Assembly: GCA_016927905.1 (NCBI GenBank)
Contig: JAFGLW010000013.1
Location: 159,810-223,809, forward strand
Origin: a candidate division CSSED10-310 bacterium
Lineage (GTDB): Bacteria > CSSED10-310 > JAFGJC01
Length of the DNA stretch: 64,000 bases
Direction: 5' to 3'
Positions 48,367 to 55,195 of this stretch are shown here, piece after piece. The notes under the pieces were generated by a model. It was not told the origin of the DNA. It saw only the letters and a list, made by a program, of their open reading frames with translations, and did not search any database. The number at the start of each line of letters is the position of its first letter. The first letter of the stretch is position 1. Position numbers and translations under genes: made by a program.

Positions 48367-49407
48367 ATGAAGCGTTTGGGGGAGCTGCTTGTTGATGACG
48401 GGCTCGTCAGCAGGGAAGACCTGGACAGGGCTCTGAATCGACAGTCATCATCCGGTGGGCGGCTGGGTACCAATCTCGTGGAGATGATGCTGATCGACGA
48501 TGTTGTTCTGGGTGAAGCCCTGTCCCGGCAGCTGGATGTGCCCTTCGTTCATCCCAGGGAGCTGGAATCGATCAGTGCCGATGTCCTGGAAATTCTGACG
48601 GTGCCTCTGGTGGAATTGTTCAAGGCCGTGCCGTTCAAATGGGAAGGTCAAAGGTTGCATTGCGCCATGCTCGATCCGTCGGATATCCAGGCGGTCGACA
48701 ATCTTTCCCACAGGCTGGGCTGTGCCGTAAAGCCATACGCATGCGCTGAATCGATCCTGTACCGCGCCATGTCGGTTCATTATCAGATTCAGCCCCCGGC
48801 CAGGCGGTCCGTGGAAGCGAACAGCATCGTTCACGGCAATGTTCTGCCCAGCAATTCCGGGTTGATTTCCCTGGACGATGAAGGGCAGTTCACCCTGGTT
48901 GACCGGGGGGATATTCTGGGCAGCCGGACCAAGACGATGTTTATGGATGCCGCAACCAAAACCGCGGTTGTGGGTTATTTTCTTCAGTTTCTGAGTTACA
49001 TCACAGACAAAATCGCTTTCCTGGCGTATGACAGAAAAAAGAATTATCTCTGGCGCGACGCCAAGGTATTTCAGGAGGGACGGCAGGGTATCGCCTGCGG
49101 CGAAACCGTGAACCGGTCCAAATTCTGGCAGAAATACCTGGACAAACCGGCATTCGTCTTCATCCGCCTGCCCCAGCCAGGGAACGAGATGAACTGGGTC
49201 GTTCCGCTTCTGGACATGCCGGACGTCAAATCCATTTTCCTGGCTCCGCTGACCATCTCGAAGCGGGTAACCGGTGTGGTGATCGGAGGCTCCAGTTCGG
49301 TAACGCGGATGGAGGAGGAACTGGAGACGATCCGGAAGCTGTACCTGATTGCGACCAGCACGCTCAAGATCCAGGAATTGCGTAAACTCATCGAGAATGT
49401 TCTATAG
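48367..49407 (+). CDS. MshEN/T2SSE_N-domain protein without an ATPase domain; C-terminal GAF-like region
   Basis: RLGELLVDDGLVSREDLDRALNRQ...RLGTNL...LSRQ; AMLDP; no Walker motifs. Confidence 0.78.
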   Translation: MKRLGELLVDDGLVSREDLDRALNRQSSSGGRLGTNLVEMMLIDDVVLGEALSRQLDVPFVHPRELESISADVLEILTVPLVELFKAVPFKWEGQRLHCAMLDPSDIQAVDNLSHRLGCAVKPYACAESILYRAMSVHYQIQPPARRSVEANSIVHGNVLPSNSGLISLDDEGQFTLVDRGDILGSRTKTMFMDAATKTAVVGYFLQFLSYITDKIAFLAYDRKKNYLWRDAKVFQEGRQGIACGETVNRSKFWQKYLDKPAFVFIRLPQPGNEMNWVVPLLDMPDVKSIFLAPLTISKRVTGVVIGGSSSVTRMEEELETIRKLYLIATSTLKIQELRKLIENVL

Positions 49408-52400
49408 GGGCAGTTCCGCTCTTTGGTTCCGTTCGGTTTGTCTGCGCAGGGGTGGTGTCCTGCGGATGGGTCCGGCGGTATTGCGGATATTCAGGCGTTT
49501 GCGGACCAGCAGCTGGACCCGTTCCGCAACCAGCGTCGGCACTCCGAATTCCATCACCACGCAGCCTTTCAGAAGAAACGGTCCCCGTCCCCGGAGCAGT
49601 TCCCGGGCGTTTTGACGGAACGACACGGGAAAGAACGTCGTCTCGAACCGCCCCCACTCATCGGAAAAGGTGATGAAGGTCATCAGTTCGCCGGTGGATC
49701 GGGTCCGGGTTTTTTTCCCGATCACGCGCCATCCCAGCATATACGTTTCGCGCCCGGCGCGTGCGGCCAGATCGACGGACCGGATGACGGGTCTCAGGCG
49801 CCGGGCCTGCGCGGTTTCGTCGGGGAAGATGCGGAACGGGTGGGCGGAAGGGGTCAGTCCCAGGATCTCCAGTTCCCAGATCAGAATCTGAGGCAGGGGC
49901 GGGTCGGGCAGGGAGGGCATTTCATTCCATAGATCCCGAAACCGCTGCGGATCGAAATCCGCAGCCCGGGATTCCTTCAATCCGGCATAATATATTTCAA
50001 TTCCCCACAGCAGCTCCGGAATGGTCCGGCCCAGAGATCGCATTGCGCCGCACATGGCCAGGTTGCGGGCCTCGTCGGCGGTCATCCGGGCCGGCCGGAG
50101 CAGATCGATGAGATCCCGGTAGGGGCGGGATGTTTTTCTGAAACCGATGATCCGCTCGGCGGTTTCCCGGCGGAGAGATTTGACCTGCATCAGCCCCACC
50201 CGGAGATGCCCGTCCGCCCCGGTGAACCGGTATTCGCTTCCGTTGATACACGGAGAATGAATGATGATCCCCAACCGGCGCGCCTCTTCCAGGTATTCCA
50301 AAGATCCGTAGTATCCACCGCCGCCGGTCAGCACGGCCGCCATGAATTCCGCAGGATGATGGCTTTTGTAATACATGCTCTGGAACGATTCCATGGCAAA
50401 CGAAGCGGAATGCGCCTTGCAGAAGGCATAACCGGCGAAGGATTCGACCTGGCGGTAAATCTCGTCGATCACGGAATCGGGAATACCCTTCCGTCGGCAT
50501 CCCAGGTAGAACCGGTCCCGGTAATCCTCCAGGTGGAGCCGGTTCTTCTTGAACGACATCAGCCGCCGCAGATCGTCCGCTTCGCCCAGCGAAAGTTCCG
50601 CCAGTTCCGATGCGATCCGGATCACCTGTTCCTGGTAGATGAGACATCCCCGCGTGTCCGAAAGGATTGGTTTCAGGAGCGGATGGAGCACGGTTTCCGC
50701 CTCCAGTTTCAAATGCCGGCGAAGATAGGAATGCTTGCCGCCGTAATTCGACACGCCCGGCCGGATGATCGAAGACAGGGCGGTCAGGCATTCGAAATCG
50801 TCGCATCGCGCCTGCCGGATCAGGTTGATCATTGCGGGGCTCTCAATGTAAAAACAACCGATGGTGCGGCCCGCCCGCATCCATTCCCGGGTGCGGGAAT
50901 CACTCAGAAATATCCGGGGATCATCCGGAACCGGACGACCCTGCTGCCGGACGGTCCGCACCGTTTCGGAGATCACTTCCAGCCCTTTCTGCCCCAGGAT
51001 GTCGATTTTCAGCAGGCCGGCTTCCTCCACGGGGACCATCGACCACTGTGTGATCGCCAGGCCCTTGTCCCCGCGCTGCAGCGGCATGTAACGGGACAGT
51101 GCATCCGGAGCGATCACCAGCCCGCAGGGATGCGTCGCCATATGGCGCGGATATCCCCCGATCCGCTGAACGATCTTTCGAAGACCGGCAAAGGGTTCCC
51201 GGTCCAGCGGCAGATCGCGGGTTTCAGGGGAGGCCGCCAGCTTCTCTTCAAGATTCCCGACATCGGAAAAATGGGGCAGGCGCTTGATGAATTCGTCCAC
51301 TTCCCCCCTGGGCAGGCCCAGCGCCACCGCCGCTTCCCGAAAGGCCCCCCGCAGCTGGAACGTCACATGAGTGCCGATCATGGCCACACGGTCCCGCCCA
51401 AAAAACTCGAAAATATAATCCAGCACCGTTTCGCGGTCCTGTGTTCCGAAATCCAGATCAAAATCGGGCAGGGACGTGCGCTGATCGTTCAGAAACCGCT
51501 CGAAAAAGAGATTGTGAGCCATCGGATCCACATGGGTGATATACAGACAGTACGAAACAATGGAATTGGCCGCCGATCCCCGCCCCAGACAGGGCATGAA
51601 CCGGGAGCGTGCCTGATTGACGATGTCGCGGCAGATCAGGAAATAATCCGACAGCCCCATCTTCCGGATCACCTCCAGCTCACGTTCCAGTATCCGACGC
51701 GCACCCGCTGCCGATCCGGGGCCGTACCGCTCGGATAACCCCTTCAACGCCAGCCCGCGCAGATACAGGTGGGCGTCGCCGTTTCCAGGTACCGGAAACC
51801 GGGGCAGCTTGCGCCGGCCCAGGTCCAGATCCACCCGGCATTCCCGTGCGATCCGAACGGTTTCCTCTAAAATGGCGGACTCCCCGTGAAACCGCGCCGA
51901 CATTTCCATGGCGGAAGCCAGATACGCGGTCGGCGTCAAGGCACCCCGGGGAATCCTGCCGACAGTGGTTTTCAGGCGGAGAGCGGAAAGAAGACGATGC
52001 ACCGGATACTCTCGGGCAGATACGAACCGGACGGCATTGGTCGCCGCCACCGGCAGCTTCAACCGGGACGCCATCTCCAGGCGCCGGTCACGTTCCCACC
52101 GGCTTCCCGGCGTGCCCCAATGGTGCACCTCGACATGGGAAACCCCGCGACGCCCGAATTCGTTCACCCGCCGCCGCAATACCGGTTCATCACCCGTCAA
52201 AACGAATACCGTCTCCGGCAATTCCGCCACCCGGGCCTCCCAGTCAAAACCATCTTCCATGTGACGGGCCGTGACCAGGCGGCAGATCGCCTGGTACCCT
52301 TCACGGTTACGGGCCAGCAATACCGCGCGCCTGCGCCCGGACAGCACCCGAAAATCCCGGCCCGGGAGGATCACGGGGGTCGGTTCCGTCAACTCCACCC

Positions 52401-52593
52401 CCAGAATCGGCCGCACACCCTCACGGGCGCAGGCACGTAAAAACGGAACAGCGGCGTACAGCCCGTCGGTATCGGTCAGGGCAAGCGCTTCCATCCCCAG
52501 CTTCGCGGCGGTCCCCGCCAGCTCCTCCACCCGGCTGGCTCCGTCCAGCATGGAATAATTGGAATGAACGTGCAGGTGAACGAATCCGGTCAT
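49402..52593 (-). CDS. dnaE2: DNA polymerase III alpha, error-prone DnaE2 type
   Basis: HLHVHSNYSMLDG, GRGSAANS, LPDFDLDF, FCKAHSAS; degenerate PHP residues; near an imuB-like gene. Confidence 0.85.
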   Translation of the reverse strand: MTGFVHLHVHSNYSMLDGASRVEELAGTAAKLGMEALALTDTDGLYAAVPFLRACAREGVRPILGVELTEPTPVILPGRDFRVLSGRRRAVLLARNREGYQAICRLVTARHMEDGFDWEARVAELPETVFVLTGDEPVLRRRVNEFGRRGVSHVEVHHWGTPGSRWERDRRLEMASRLKLPVAATNAVRFVSAREYPVHRLLSALRLKTTVGRIPRGALTPTAYLASAMEMSARFHGESAILEETVRIARECRVDLDLGRRKLPRFPVPGNGDAHLYLRGLALKGLSERYGPGSAAGARRILERELEVIRKMGLSDYFLICRDIVNQARSRFMPCLGRGSAANSIVSYCLYITHVDPMAHNLFFERFLNDQRTSLPDFDLDFGTQDRETVLDYIFEFFGRDRVAMIGTHVTFQLRGAFREAAVALGLPRGEVDEFIKRLPHFSDVGNLEEKLAASPETRDLPLDREPFAGLRKIVQRIGGYPRHMATHPCGLVIAPDALSRYMPLQRGDKGLAITQWSMVPVEEAGLLKIDILGQKGLEVISETVRTVRQQGRPVPDDPRIFLSDSRTREWMRAGRTIGCFYIESPAMINLIRQARCDDFECLTALSSIIRPGVSNYGGKHSYLRRHLKLEAETVLHPLLKPILSDTRGCLIYQEQVIRIASELAELSLGEADDLRRLMSFKKNRLHLEDYRDRFYLGCRRKGIPDSVIDEIYRQVESFAGYAFCKAHSASFAMESFQSMYYKSHHPAEFMAAVLTGGGGYYGSLEYLEEARRLGIIIHSPCINGSEYRFTGADGHLRVGLMQVKSLRRETAERIIGFRKTSRPYRDLIDLLRPARMTADEARNLAMCGAMRSLGRTIPELLWGIEIYYAGLKESRAADFDPQRFRDLWNEMPSLPDPPLPQILIWELEILGLTPSAHPFRIFPDETAQARRLRPVIRSVDLAARAGRETYMLGWRVIGKKTRTRSTGELMTFITFSDEWGRFETTFFPVSFRQNARELLRGRGPFLLKGCVVMEFGVPTLVAERVQLLVRKRLNIRNTAGPIRRTPPLRRQTERNQRAELPL

Positions 52594-52615
52594 GACGGGC
52601 GCTGCACCCGGGGAG

Positions 52616-52634
52616 AGGCGAAAAAAAGACGAAA
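52616..52634 (-). promoter_or_regulatory. Direct-repeat box upstream of dnaE2 (candidate operator)
   Basis: AGGCGAAAAAAAGACGAAA on the + strand; 18/19 identical to the box at 55053-55071. Confidence 0.6.
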
Positions 52635-52687
52635 ACATTCCCGGGTGCGGGGGTTTGGATGGAAGGGAGCGGGGGGATTCATACCGA

Positions 52688-53842
52688 TTATGAAGGCTGG
52701 AACAGCCTGTTGAAAACCGCGGAATAGATGCGTTTCAGCTTGAACAGGCTTTCGACGCAACAGGACTCGTTGACCTTGTGAAGGGTGGTGTTTTCCAGGC
52801 CGATCTCGAGAACCGGGACACCCAGTGAAGCGAGGAACCGGCCGTCGCTGGTTCCGCCCTGCACACACTTTCGGGGTGTTCGGCCGGTAACCGATTCGAT
52901 GGATTCCGAGCACAGGCGGATGTAGGGTTCGTGGACCGTATAATAGGGGTCGGCCAGCCAGGACAGTTCCAGTTGGTAATCGGTGTTCCGGGCCAGGCCC
53001 GCTTCCCGAAGTGTGCGGTGCAGGTCGGTTTGGAGGGATTGAAGGGACTGGGAGGGTGTGGTGCGGATATCGATCCCGATTGTCGCCCGGTTCGGTATGA
53101 CATTGTCCTTGTCGCCGGCATGAGCGGTGGTCACGGAAAGGGTGGGATCCGCGAAATCCGTCCGGATGTCCCGGGTGAAGGTTGTCCGGCTCAATGCCGT
53201 GACCGCTCCGGCCAGCTTGAGGATCGGGTTGTCGCCTTCCTCGGGTCGAGCACCGTGGGCCTGGATGCCCTTGAAATGAATCCGGCCCCAGCAGGCGCCC
53301 CGGCGTCCGATTTTCAGGTCGAAGCCGGTGGGCTCGCCGACCAGGCCGTAATCGAACCGGAATCGGCGGTGCAGGTTCTGCAGGAGCGGTGCGCCGCCGC
53401 GTCTGCCGCCGTTTTCCTCATCCGCCAGGATCGCCAGGACCAGGGTGCCCGGGCGGCGGCGGGTATGGGCGGCCAGTTCCACAGCCGCTCCGATCGCCGC
53501 GGCAATACCGGTTTTCATGTCGCAGGCCCCCCGGCCGTACAGCATGCCGTCCCGGATCAGGGGTGTGAACGGTGCGGTCACCGTCCAGGATTCCGGGGGT
53601 CCGGGTGGAACCACATCCCAGTGCCCGATCCAGCATACCGCCGGCTCGTTCCCCTCCATTGCCGCAAACAGGGAAGGAGCTCCGGAGACGGTTTCCGTCC
53701 AGCAGGTCATCCCGTGCCCGGCCAGGAACCGGGAAAGATATTCCACGGCCTGGGGCTGGGTGCCCGGCGGATTCGTTGTGTCGATGGCGATCAGTTCCTG
53801 GGCAATCTTCAGAACCGCATCATCTGTCATCCTGTTCATCAT
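52688..53842 (-). CDS. M20 family metallopeptidase, DapE/ArgE-like
   Basis: GHWDVV, GRGACDMK, ADEE, GEPT, GIQAHG, GGTSDGRF, LHKVNE. Confidence 0.88.
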   Translation of the reverse strand: MMNRMTDDAVLKIAQELIAIDTTNPPGTQPQAVEYLSRFLAGHGMTCWTETVSGAPSLFAAMEGNEPAVCWIGHWDVVPPGPPESWTVTAPFTPLIRDGMLYGRGACDMKTGIAAAIGAAVELAAHTRRRPGTLVLAILADEENGGRRGGAPLLQNLHRRFRFDYGLVGEPTGFDLKIGRRGACWGRIHFKGIQAHGARPEEGDNPILKLAGAVTALSRTTFTRDIRTDFADPTLSVTTAHAGDKDNVIPNRATIGIDIRTTPSQSLQSLQTDLHRTLREAGLARNTDYQLELSWLADPYYTVHEPYIRLCSESIESVTGRTPRKCVQGGTSDGRFLASLGVPVLEIGLENTTLHKVNESCCVESLFKLKRIYSAVFNRLFQPS

Positions 53843-53874
53843 AGCATTCGCAAGGGCAAATGAAAGCATGCCGG

Positions 53875-55041
53875 TCACCCCAGTGCCGCGGCCAGCCGGA
53901 CCGATACGTTCGGATCCGGAAAACGCGTGCGGGTGCTGTCCACGGCGCGAAGGACACGGTCCCACTTGGCCCGGCGGGCGGCATCACCCAGGGGCAGCTC
54001 CGACGGACAATACCGGATATTGCGCGCGACCAGCGCCAGGCTCCGGACACGGACTCTCCGGTAATAAAGCTGCCCGAATAGAACCCGGGCCGCCCGGAAC
54101 AGCTCCGGGTCCCGATGACTGGGCAGCGGCAGCGCCGCCTGCCGCTGGACCAGAACGCCGTCGGCATACAGAATGCGCAGAAGCACGTGTTGCGCGGAGC
54201 GCTGCCGCCGCCGCAGCTCGTTTCCCAGGCGGCCCGCCAGATGAGCCAGGCGACTTTCCAGAATACCTGCATCCAGAATATCCGACGGGAAAATCTCCCG
54301 GACACAAGGTTCTTCCGGGCGGCCCCGGGGCCGCACCCTGCCGCCCTCCACCCCCCGGGCCCGTTTCCAGAGAACCGCGCCGAGAGATCCGTATAGGTGC
54401 ACCAGAATCCCCTCCGGAATCCCCGCAAGATGCCCGATGTTCCGGATACCCATCCGGCGGAAACGGTCCGAAAGACCCGGTGTCATTCCCGGCAGCCATT
54501 CGACCGGACAATGCATCAGAAACCGCATCTCACACCCCGGCCTGACCTCCCGGAAATTCCCCAACTTGGCCGCCCGGCACGCCACGGCGCTGACCGCCTT
54601 GTCCGCAGCCAGTCCCACCGAAACACTCAAATTCAACTCATCCCGGATTTCCCGCTGAAGCCGGCGGGCAAAATCGGCCGGCGGCCCGAACAACATCCCG
54701 CAACCGGTGTAATCCACAAACAGGGCGTCCAAAGCCGAACGCTCCACCCGGGGCGAATACCGGCCCAGCAGACCGAATAATGCCGCCGACGCCTTACGGG
54801 CCAGATTCCAGTCCACCTGAACCAATGCGCCGCCGGGACACATCCGTTCCGCCTGCGCCATGGTGATGCCCCCGTGAATGCCCGATGCACGGGCCTCATA
54901 CGATGCCGCCACCACATAACCGCGGCTTTGCAGATTGCCCACCACCACCGGCCGGCCCCGCAATCGGGGCGCCTTCAAACGGGCCATCGACGCGAAGAAA
55001 TCATCCCCGTCGACATGCAGAATCGCCGGTTGACTCGACAT
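53875..55041 (-). CDS. imuB: Y-family polymerase homologue (DinB/ImuB-like), probably catalytically impaired
   Basis: HVDGDDFFAS and SYEAR motifs present; the conserved S-x-D-E motif reads ALDA (Glu to Ala). Confidence 0.75.
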   Translation of the reverse strand: MSSQPAILHVDGDDFFASMARLKAPRLRGRPVVVGNLQSRGYVVAASYEARASGIHGGITMAQAERMCPGGALVQVDWNLARKASAALFGLLGRYSPRVERSALDALFVDYTGCGMLFGPPADFARRLQREIRDELNLSVSVGLAADKAVSAVACRAAKLGNFREVRPGCEMRFLMHCPVEWLPGMTPGLSDRFRRMGIRNIGHLAGIPEGILVHLYGSLGAVLWKRARGVEGGRVRPRGRPEEPCVREIFPSDILDAGILESRLAHLAGRLGNELRRRQRSAQHVLLRILYADGVLVQRQAALPLPSHRDPELFRAARVLFGQLYYRRVRVRSLALVARNIRYCPSELPLGDAARRAKWDRVLRAVDSTRTRFPDPNVSVRLAAALG

Positions 55042-55047
55042 ACGGTT

Positions 55048-55076
55048 ATGATAGGCGAAAAAAAGGCGAAAGTCAA
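55048..55076 (-). promoter_or_regulatory. Sigma70-type promoter of the imuB-like gene with a direct-repeat box (55053-55071) filling the spacer
   Basis: TTGACT-17 nt-TATCAT, then 6 nt to ATG 55041; spacer TTCGCC-TTTTT-TTCGCC. Confidence 0.68.
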
Positions 55077-55092
55077 TAGTGAAATATACGTG

Positions 55093-55116
55093 AAAAAAAA
55101 CCCCGGGAATCCGGGG
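55093..55116 (-). terminator. Rho-independent terminator downstream of tRNA-Val
   Basis: CCCCGG-ATTC-CCGGGG followed by T8 on the - strand. Confidence 0.85.
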
Positions 55117-55122
55117 TCGATC

Positions 55123-55195
55123 TGGGCGCTAGCAGACTTGAACTGCTGGCCTCTGCCGTGTGAAAGCAGCGCTCTTCCAGCTGAGCTAAGCGCCC
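55123..55195 (-). tRNA. tRNA-Val (anticodon CAC), CCA not encoded
   Basis: GGGCGCT-TAGCTCAGCTGGAAGAGC-G-CTGCT-TTCACAC-GGCAG-...-GTTCAAGTCTGCT-AGCGCCC-A forms a full cloverleaf. Confidence 0.95.

Follow-up and report, generated by a model that had tools for sequence, protein, structure and literature searches.

We analyzed a 64-kb stretch of DNA (the window) from a draft genome of CSSED10-310, a rare and uncultured bacterial phylum (PMC8248873), in which two near-identical direct-repeat boxes lie upstream of two mutagenesis genes, an imuB-like gene encoding a Y-family polymerase and dnaE2. Comparison of sequences makes it highly probable that this box, with the consensus TTTCGCC-N4-TTTCGCC, is the LexA (SOS) operator of CSSED10-310. 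The original prediction had proposed a lineage variant of an SOS/LexA-type operator, and it is supported by a match in the lexA promoter, by targets among DNA-repair genes and by conservation across the phylum. The source genome of the window (G000; 3.1-Mb draft, 54% GC, 86.5% complete), in which the window lies on contig C22, belongs to a phylum-level comparison set of 14 CSSED10-310 genomes (G000-G013).

Two near-identical boxes precede the imuB-like and dnaE2 genes

The two boxes, AGGCGAAAAAAAGGCGAAA at 55053-55071 and AGGCGAAAAAAAGACGAAA at 52616-52634 on the + strand, are identical at 18 of 19 positions and have the same orientation, as had been noticed in the first reading of the window. 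The coding (minus) strand carries TTTCGCCTTTTTTTCGCC(T) and TTTCGTCTTTTTTTCGCC(T), a direct repeat of the form TTTCGCC-N4-TTTCGCC with two 7-nt half-sites and an 11-bp period. The 11-bp periodicity, which had also been noted, is seen in the internal repetition of AGGCGAAA at 55053-55060 and 55064-55071. A degenerate pattern search located the box nowhere else in the window, as claimed before: TTTCGNCTTTTTTTCGNC, with two or fewer mismatches allowed, matches these two places only, where 0.05 matches were expected, and none of 100 shuffled sequences gave two or more matches. As 18-mers, the two boxes are identical at 17 of 18 positions.

At the imuB-like gene, the operator TTTCGCC-TTTT-TTTCGCC (55054..55071, minus strand) is embedded in a sigma-70-type promoter (55048..55076, minus strand) that consists of TTGACT (55076-55071), a 17-nt spacer and TATCAT (55053-55048), with 10 of 12 consensus matches. 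The box shares one T with the -35 hexamer TTGACT and occupies the whole -35/-10 spacer, in agreement with the original prediction.

The second operator, TTTCGTC-TTTT-TTTCGCC (52617..52634, minus strand), is located in the 94-bp spacer between dapE and dnaE2. That it lies upstream of dnaE2 is correct for the ATG at 52593, which is supported by homology (MTGFVHLHVHS) and places the box 23 nt upstream of the start codon; the ATG of the longest open reading frame (ORF), at 52638, would put the box inside the ORF.

The box marks lexA and DNA-repair genes in the source genome

The genome-wide scan was seeded with the window 18-mer only, at two or fewer mismatches, and was then widened to three mismatches. 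The seed matched five places in the 3.1-Mb genome, including both window boxes. One of these matches lies in the -35/-10 spacer of lexA on contig C11, TTGAC-TTTCGCCTATCTTTCGCC-TTATAT, which repeats the arrangement of the imuB-like promoter. The lexA product is a 200-aa protein that scores 193.5 bits with TIGR00498 (cut-off 111), and its alignment to E. coli LexA structures revealed the AAG cleavage site, the Ser of GDSM and the Lys of TVKR. This LexA shares 72% identity with that of a metagenome-assembled genome assigned to CSSED10-310. A second, weaker operator is found on the opposite strand over the ribosome-binding site of lexA, and lexA is directly followed by a genuine dinB, which scores 304.7 bits (cut-off 256). 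The three-mismatch scan added sites upstream of uvrA, the product of which was identified with NF001503 (1179 bits, cut-off 1147), and of nrdD, which encodes an anaerobic ribonucleotide reductase.

A position weight matrix was built from 17 training sites, the window's own sites among them, and the top 18 genome sites were judged by hand, as a long-ORF mask could not reveal intergenic enrichment in G000, where shadow ORFs cover 92% of the genome. The top matrix sites belong to the imuB-like gene, dnaE2, lexA (two sites), a mobile-element gene, nrdD and uvrA. Genome-wide matches are very few and fall on lexA (two), the imuB-like gene, dnaE2 and uvrA, consistent with an enrichment in DNA-repair genes. 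Three of the genes that had been named for an enrichment test are thereby divided: lexA and uvrA carry the box, and recA, which is taken up below, does not. No site of at least 14 bits was found upstream of ruvB or uvrB in G000, and the two genes were placed outside the regulon; ruvA and ssb fell outside the individual inspection.

The C25:58063 site (17.8 bits) was taken as noise, as it has no credible downstream gene. In the segment C18:64450-65242, the ATG of a 99-aa PC4-like ORF is preceded, at a distance of 6 nt, by a strong box, TTTCGCCTTTCTTTCGCG (24 bits). This C18 module also comprises an HTH_17 excisionase-like gene and encodes a 379-aa protein with no Pfam match. It looks like a mobile element and may be an SOS-controlled integrated element.

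The half-sites are conserved across CSSED10-310

Phylogenetic footprinting, for which the imuB-like and dnaE2 loci of relatives were compared with 1.5-kb flanks, demonstrated that the motif is conserved in the orthologous promoters of the imuB-like, dnaE2, lexA and uvrA genes. The 14 genomes contain 23 exact matches, 19 of which lie upstream of lexA (6), dnaE2 (5), the imuB-like gene (4) or uvrA (4). The other four are located at nrdD in G000, at a DinB_2-superfamily gene in G007 and in a tandem pair in G012. The tandem boxes of G012 (contig C49) flank a TATAAT beside a 70-aa ORF with no Pfam match, and the G007 box is on contig C110. A reversed control pattern was clearly rarer in most order-level genomes; the three largest and most distant genomes showed little excess over this control.

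All nine imuB-like promoters (the window and eight relatives) carry both half-sites, which in eight of the nine lie between a -35 (TTGAyT) and a TATAAT-like -10 hexamer. In the most distant genome, G001, the half-sites are present with no evident hexamers. The N4 spacer of the imuB-like boxes varies (TTTT, TTTG, ATTG, TAAC, TAAT, ATAG, TTTC), and the orthologous promoters of imuB-like, dnaE2, uvrA and lexA genes alike combine near-invariant half-sites with variable N4 spacers and flanks.

The dnaE2 genes of the relatives fall into two arrangements. A dnaE2 that is unlinked from the Y-family gene (G005, G006, G008, G009, G012) is served by a promoter of its own, TTGATTTTCGCC-N4-TTTCGCCTATAwT; a dnaE2 immediately behind the Y-family gene (G001, G002, G004) lacks the box. 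This distribution broadly upholds the earlier suggestion that the box is present twice in the window because an unrelated gene, which proved to be dapE, separates the two cassette genes. The dnaE2 copy of G000 itself departs from the suggestion in that it lies outside a recognizable promoter.

In 13 of the 14 genomes, the operator is found at the promoter of the primary lexA, and in most order-level genomes an inverted second operator covers the lexA Shine-Dalgarno sequence. No such box was found at the genes of four LexA paralogues, the recognition helices of which differ. In G004, a second lexA paralogue (C39:35000-35593; recognition helix SGASIHQH) immediately precedes a divergent imuB-like gene and dnaE2, has no direct-repeat box and may form a separate LexA circuit. 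At uvrA, the box precedes the -35 element CTTGACA by 5-8 bp in G000, G005, G006, G008, G009 and G010.

The similarity of the boxes might be due to chance or composition, for example to T-rich promoter spacers with no operator function, as the low-complexity spacer (a T7 run) and the presence of just two copies in the window could suggest. We consider this explanation negligible. The expected number of window matches is far below the two observed, and exact TTTCGCC-N4-TTTCGCC occurs three times in G000 versus 1, 0, 0, 0, 0, 0, 0, 0, 0 and 0 times in ten first-order Markov genomes (mean about 0.1). Moreover, it is the half-sites that are conserved across genomes and not the T-run, the uvrA box lies outside the promoter spacer, and the second lexA operator is on the opposite strand.

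The box follows one lineage of LexA

Sites scoring at least 10 bits with the direct-repeat matrix were found only at lexA of CSSED10-310, Sumerlaeota and Bryobacteraceae and at one Bacillota locus (10.2 bits). The LexAs of these three groups have the helix S[VL]ATVHKHL in common. The lexA loci of Actinomycetota, Armatimonadota and Bacillota were nearly all negative with this matrix, and most of them carry GAAC-N4-GTTC, often in multiple copies; the LexA helix of this palindrome group is SSSTVH[AGS]HL. No GAAC-N4-GTTC was found at lexA of CSSED10-310, Sumerlaeota or Bryobacteraceae. A SAR116 alphaproteobacterium has the helix SKSGIHRIV and GTTC-N7-GTTC in its lexA promoter. A quick LexA tree groups the direct-repeat rows together, with 2 label changes versus a shuffled mean of 16.7. 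The alphaproteobacterial row falls in the same broad, weakly resolved neighborhood of the tree as the direct-repeat LexAs, and a common ancestry of the CSSED10-310 and alphaproteobacterial LexA is possible.

The sites outside CSSED10-310 differ in detail. The lexA gene of Sumerlaeota appears to have, about 60-120 nt upstream, two tandem degenerate pairs (e.g. TTTCGCG-N4-TTTTGCC and GTTCACC-N4-CTTCGCC) flanking TTGACG. The evidence from Sumerlaeota is limited to lexA promoters, because no dnaE2 was found in the genomes examined. In Bryobacteraceae, the imuA-imuB-dnaE2 cassette bears GGCGAAC-AAAA-AGCGAAT, which abuts the imuA ATG (16.5 bits, opposite strand), and the lexA promoter reads TTGAC-TTTCYCT-TTTT-CTTCGCC-CACAAT, 7 nt before the ATG. 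From this distance, lexA is probably leaderless there. Upstream of Bacteriovorax lexA we observed TTACGC-TTGAC-TTACGCC, a direct repeat of 11-bp period and not the TTAC-N3-GTAA palindrome reported for Bdellovibrio.

LexA is the candidate binder because the box tracks the LexA lineage and its helix and sits on lexA promoters. This is an identification by association, if a specific one, and several observations weigh against it. Direct repeats of 11 bp are also typical of winged-helix response regulators. The box is missing upstream of recA, usually part of the SOS core, in all 13 genomes examined; the recA upstream regions reach at most 2.8 bits in 12 of them and 13.1 bits in G013. The exact box at nrdD (C13:100082-100099, 22 nt upstream of the -35) is absent from the nrdD promoters of G012, G001 and G010, and nrdD was left out of the core regulon because its box is either lineage-specific or non-functional. 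The matrix scores of the window's own sites, 31.7 bits at the imuB-like gene (top site in the genome) and 28.2 bits at dnaE2 (second-best site), are circular because these sites were in the training set; the lexA match, which came from the 18-mer seed search, is free of this circularity. Finally, the regulatory effect of the dnaE2 box in G000 is uncertain, as there is no recognizable promoter at this place.

Some of these points would suit a different binder. An OmpR/PhoB-type winged-helix protein or another damage regulator might bind the box and govern the translesion polymerases together with lexA and uvrA; the OmpR/PhoB family classically recognizes direct repeats with an 11-bp period, and the absence of recA from the regulon also speaks for such a regulator. 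However, the box is on the lexA promoter in all but one of the 14 genomes, it follows the LexA recognition helix across three phyla, being replaced by the palindrome where the helix is of the Gram-positive type, and LexA paralogues with other helices lack it. Direct-repeat LexA boxes are also established in Alphaproteobacteria and Balneolaeota (PMC8565304, PMC7739468), and no response-regulator gene was noticed beside any site, although no systematic search was made. Another regulator is thus very unlikely, and we favor LexA as the protein that would bind the box.

Organization of the imuB-like, dapE and dnaE2 locus

The ATG of the imuB-like gene at 55041 lies only 6 nt past the -10 hexamer, suggesting that its mRNA is probably leaderless. 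The imuB-like promoters of relatives have the same -35/-10 frame but contain a Shine-Dalgarno leader. Directly upstream of the promoter are tRNA-Val(CAC) (55123-55195) and a terminator hairpin (55099-55118; together 55099..55195, minus strand), and the order argF - tRNA-Val - imuB-like is kept in 6 of 9 genomes compared, the window's included.

The imuB-like gene (53875..55041, minus strand) encodes a Y-family polymerase of 388 aa with the Pfam domains IMS (10-155) and IMS_C (250-342), and Pfam detected no ImuB-C extension in this protein. It missed all DinB cut-offs, the best DinB model giving 201 bits where the cut-off is 367. The catalytic Glu of the S-I-D-E motif is replaced in the window's protein (LDA) and is Ala or Ser in 7 of 7 aligned order-level orthologues (G000, G002, G005-G009); the lexA-linked DinB has kept Asp-Glu. 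From this replacement we infer an inactive polymerase. G000, which is 86.5% complete, has no imuA, and the ImuA model was matched there by recA alone (41 bits against a cut-off of 150). The designation imuB in the original prediction is therefore apt for a Y-family gene that is ImuB-like in role but not for a canonical ImuB: because ImuB-C, the catalytic Glu and imuA are all missing, the locus matches an ImuA-less "Y-family polymerase plus DnaE2" variant and not the canonical cassette.

dapE (52688..53869, minus strand) encodes a succinyl-diaminopimelate desuccinylase of the M20 family (NF009557, 289.9 bits against a cut-off of 284) and starts 5 nt past the imuB-like stop codon. It is single-copy in G000, where other paralogues are just 23-24% identical. 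dapE was not found between or near the imuB-like or dnaE2 genes of relatives (loci and 1.5-kb flanks), and its position is specific to G000. dnaE2 (49402..52593, minus strand) encodes a dnaE2-type error-prone Pol III alpha homologue of 1063 aa with PHP, DNA_pol3_alpha, finger and HHH_6 domains. Along its whole length, this product matches NF004225, 'error-prone DNA polymerase', at 612 bits, which is under the cut-off of 939, and a separate DnaE1 of about 1184 aa is encoded on contig C11. No terminator-like hairpin was found between dapE and dnaE2, and the imuB-like gene, dapE and dnaE2 probably form one transcription unit in G000. No internal promoter was detected for dapE, a single-copy housekeeping gene that lies between two box-bearing polymerase genes. 

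The dnaE2 box of G000 is flanked by AATGTT and TCTCCC where relatives have TTGATT and TATAAT, and a promoter scan found no recognizable -35/-10 pair or strong promoter at it, in contrast to the five stand-alone dnaE2 promoters. A weak promoter-like match, TTTTCA-18-CATAAT (52687..52716, minus strand; 9 of 12 consensus matches), is present at the 3' end of dapE and precedes the dnaE2 operator, which would lie about 45-65 nt downstream of the transcription start if this promoter were active. The operator is also bracketed by a perfect 9-bp inverted repeat, GCACCCGGG / CCCGGGTGC (52604..52648, minus strand; arms 52604-52612 and 52640-52648, 27 nt apart). No significant RNA fold is predicted for this repeat (z = -1.43), and a repeated element was ruled out, since the inverted repeat occurs once in the genome.

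One explanation of these features is that the dnaE2 box of G000 is the decaying relic of a stand-alone promoter, with dnaE2 driven solely from the imuB-like promoter in an imuB-like/dapE/dnaE2 operon and only the imuB-like copy at work. The unlinked dnaE2 genes of relatives indeed have TTGATTTTCGCC-N4-TTTCGCCTATAAT about as far from their start codons, where G000 has the diverged hexamers; no strong promoter remains at the box, and one of its half-sites is substituted (TTTCGTC). However, the box still matches the imuB-like operator at 17 of 18 positions and ranks second in the genome (28.2 bits), while the hexamers have fully diverged. Retention of the box alongside the loss of both hexamers suggests selection on the dnaE2 box itself, and an operator without a promoter could still block elongation. 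We therefore regard decay as rather unlikely and prefer, on present sequence evidence, a second operator or roadblock: having lost its promoter hexamers, the box would still bind LexA and keep read-through from the imuB-like gene and dapE out of dnaE2 until LexA is cleaved.

Discussion

The box that we describe is a new sequence version of a known switch, close to the alphaproteobacterial GTTC-N7-GTTC, and involves no new mechanism. A LexA dimer would bind one face of the DNA, with the half-sites one helical turn apart. Because TTGACT and TATCAT directly enclose the operator, LexA bound there would keep RNA polymerase off the imuB-like promoter, and the same occlusion at the promoter spacer is predicted for lexA and for stand-alone dnaE2. 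The box overlaps the core promoter at the imuB-like gene and at lexA; at uvrA it lies just upstream of the -35, and at dnaE2 of G000 there are no hexamers to overlap. Following DNA damage, RecA-stimulated self-cleavage of LexA, a step of established LexA biology, would free these promoters. The regulon would be small and centered on translesion synthesis, consisting of lexA-dinB, the imuB-like gene, dnaE2 and uvrA, with recA excluded.

GTTC-N7-GTTC is the direct-repeat LexA motif of Alphaproteobacteria (PMC8565304, PMC3323433). The CSSED10-310 box resembles it in being a direct repeat with an 11-bp period and a TTC core, and in its location on the promoters of lexA and of mutagenesis-cassette genes. 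A minority of CSSED10-310 sites even read GTTC (the imuB-like gene in G002 and G003; uvrA in G000). Unlike the alphaproteobacterial box, its half-site is TTTCGCC, which has 7 informative positions, totals 25 bits and adds a conserved GCC; half-site 1 begins with T in all 17 training sites and half-site 2 in 15 of them, and the site is thus not GTTC. The proteins differ as well, with the helix SVATVHKH as against SKSGIHR in SAR116 LexA and about 35% identity between them, and unlike in the alphaproteobacterial system, recA lies outside the regulon. Mazon et al. are said to have found in 2006 that the LexA motif of Acidobacterium capsulatum is GTTC-N7-GTTC. A title in the reference list of PMC3323433 names the LexA box of this species and the lateral acquisition of an alphaproteobacterial lexA.

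The relation to the Gram-positive (Cheo) box GAAC-N4-GTTC, known from Bacillota and Actinomycetota, is of another kind. The helices are nearly the same (SVATVHKHL and SSSTVH[AGS]HL), whereas the CSSED10-310 site is a direct repeat and not a palindrome. With its flanks, the Gram-positive box reads CGAAC-N4-GTTCG, and the GTTCG arm resembles the CSSED10-310 core xTTCG.

In Balneolaeota, the LexA motif is the direct repeat TTACACATATTTTWTACATA, and its regulon, which includes recA, was validated by electrophoretic mobility shift assay (PMC7739468). Both this motif and the CSSED10-310 box are lineage-specific direct repeats derived from comparative genomics of draft genomes, with regulons centered on translesion polymerases; they differ in that the CSSED10-310 sequence is unrelated, its regulon lacks recA and it is predicted from sequence. 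A LexA motif of Patescibacteria is credited in PMC7739468 to Sanchez-Osuna et al. 2017. Full-text literature searches found no LexA motif reported for CSSED10-310, Sumerlaeota or Bryobacterales; an acidobacterial variant may be mentioned in Erill et al. 2006 or 2016, outside that coverage.

The polymerase genes under this operator also have counterparts. Compared with the canonical imuA-imuB-dnaE2 cassette, G000 differs by the absence of imuA, with a tRNA upstream instead, and by the absence of ImuB-C; an inactive Y-family member, predicted here from the sequence, is common to both. ImuA-less mutasome variants that combine a Y-family polymerase with DnaE2 and lack ImuB-C have been described, e.g. 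the Streptomyces scDinB2-like group and Bacteroidetes PolY2 (Timinskas & Venclovas 2019, PMC6511836). CSSED10-310 likewise pairs a Y-family polymerase with DnaE2 in the absence of imuA and ImuB-C, and its Y-family member shares the missing catalytic Glu with the inactive scDinB2-like group, a likeness in features. Unlike in the variants of PMC6511836, the two genes are unlinked in several CSSED10-310 genomes and are tied solely by their common operator.

These comparisons can be joined into a wider proposal, which we offer tentatively and hold to be possible rather than probable. One old LexA clade, comprising CSSED10-310, Sumerlaeota, Bryobacterales and possibly lineages with related 11-bp-period boxes, would bind xTTCGCC direct repeats. 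The change from palindrome to direct repeat would have come about through a changed hold of the DNA-binding domains in the dimer and not through new base contacts; such a change in dimer arrangement is proposed because the base-reading helices are almost the same (ATVHKH and STVH[GSA]H). The SOS boxes of Gram-positive bacteria and of Alphaproteobacteria would then be linked through this clade as their missing intermediates, and the proposal also includes a LexA roadblock between dapE and dnaE2 in G000.

Repeated change of its binding motif in the course of evolution makes LexA a textbook example among transcription factors, and each new LexA motif is a data point on the co-evolution of regulator and regulon. 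Here, an SOS box and a compact regulon (lexA-dinB, the imuB-like gene, dnaE2 and uvrA, without recA) were computed for a phylum with no known regulation, and closely similar boxes accompany an identical recognition helix in Sumerlaeota and Bryobacteraceae. With this motif, metagenome-assembled genomes of these groups can be annotated for SOS genes and for mobile elements under SOS control. Moreover, a pair of LexAs with near-identical helices and opposite site symmetry provides material for the question of how a palindrome gives way to a direct repeat.

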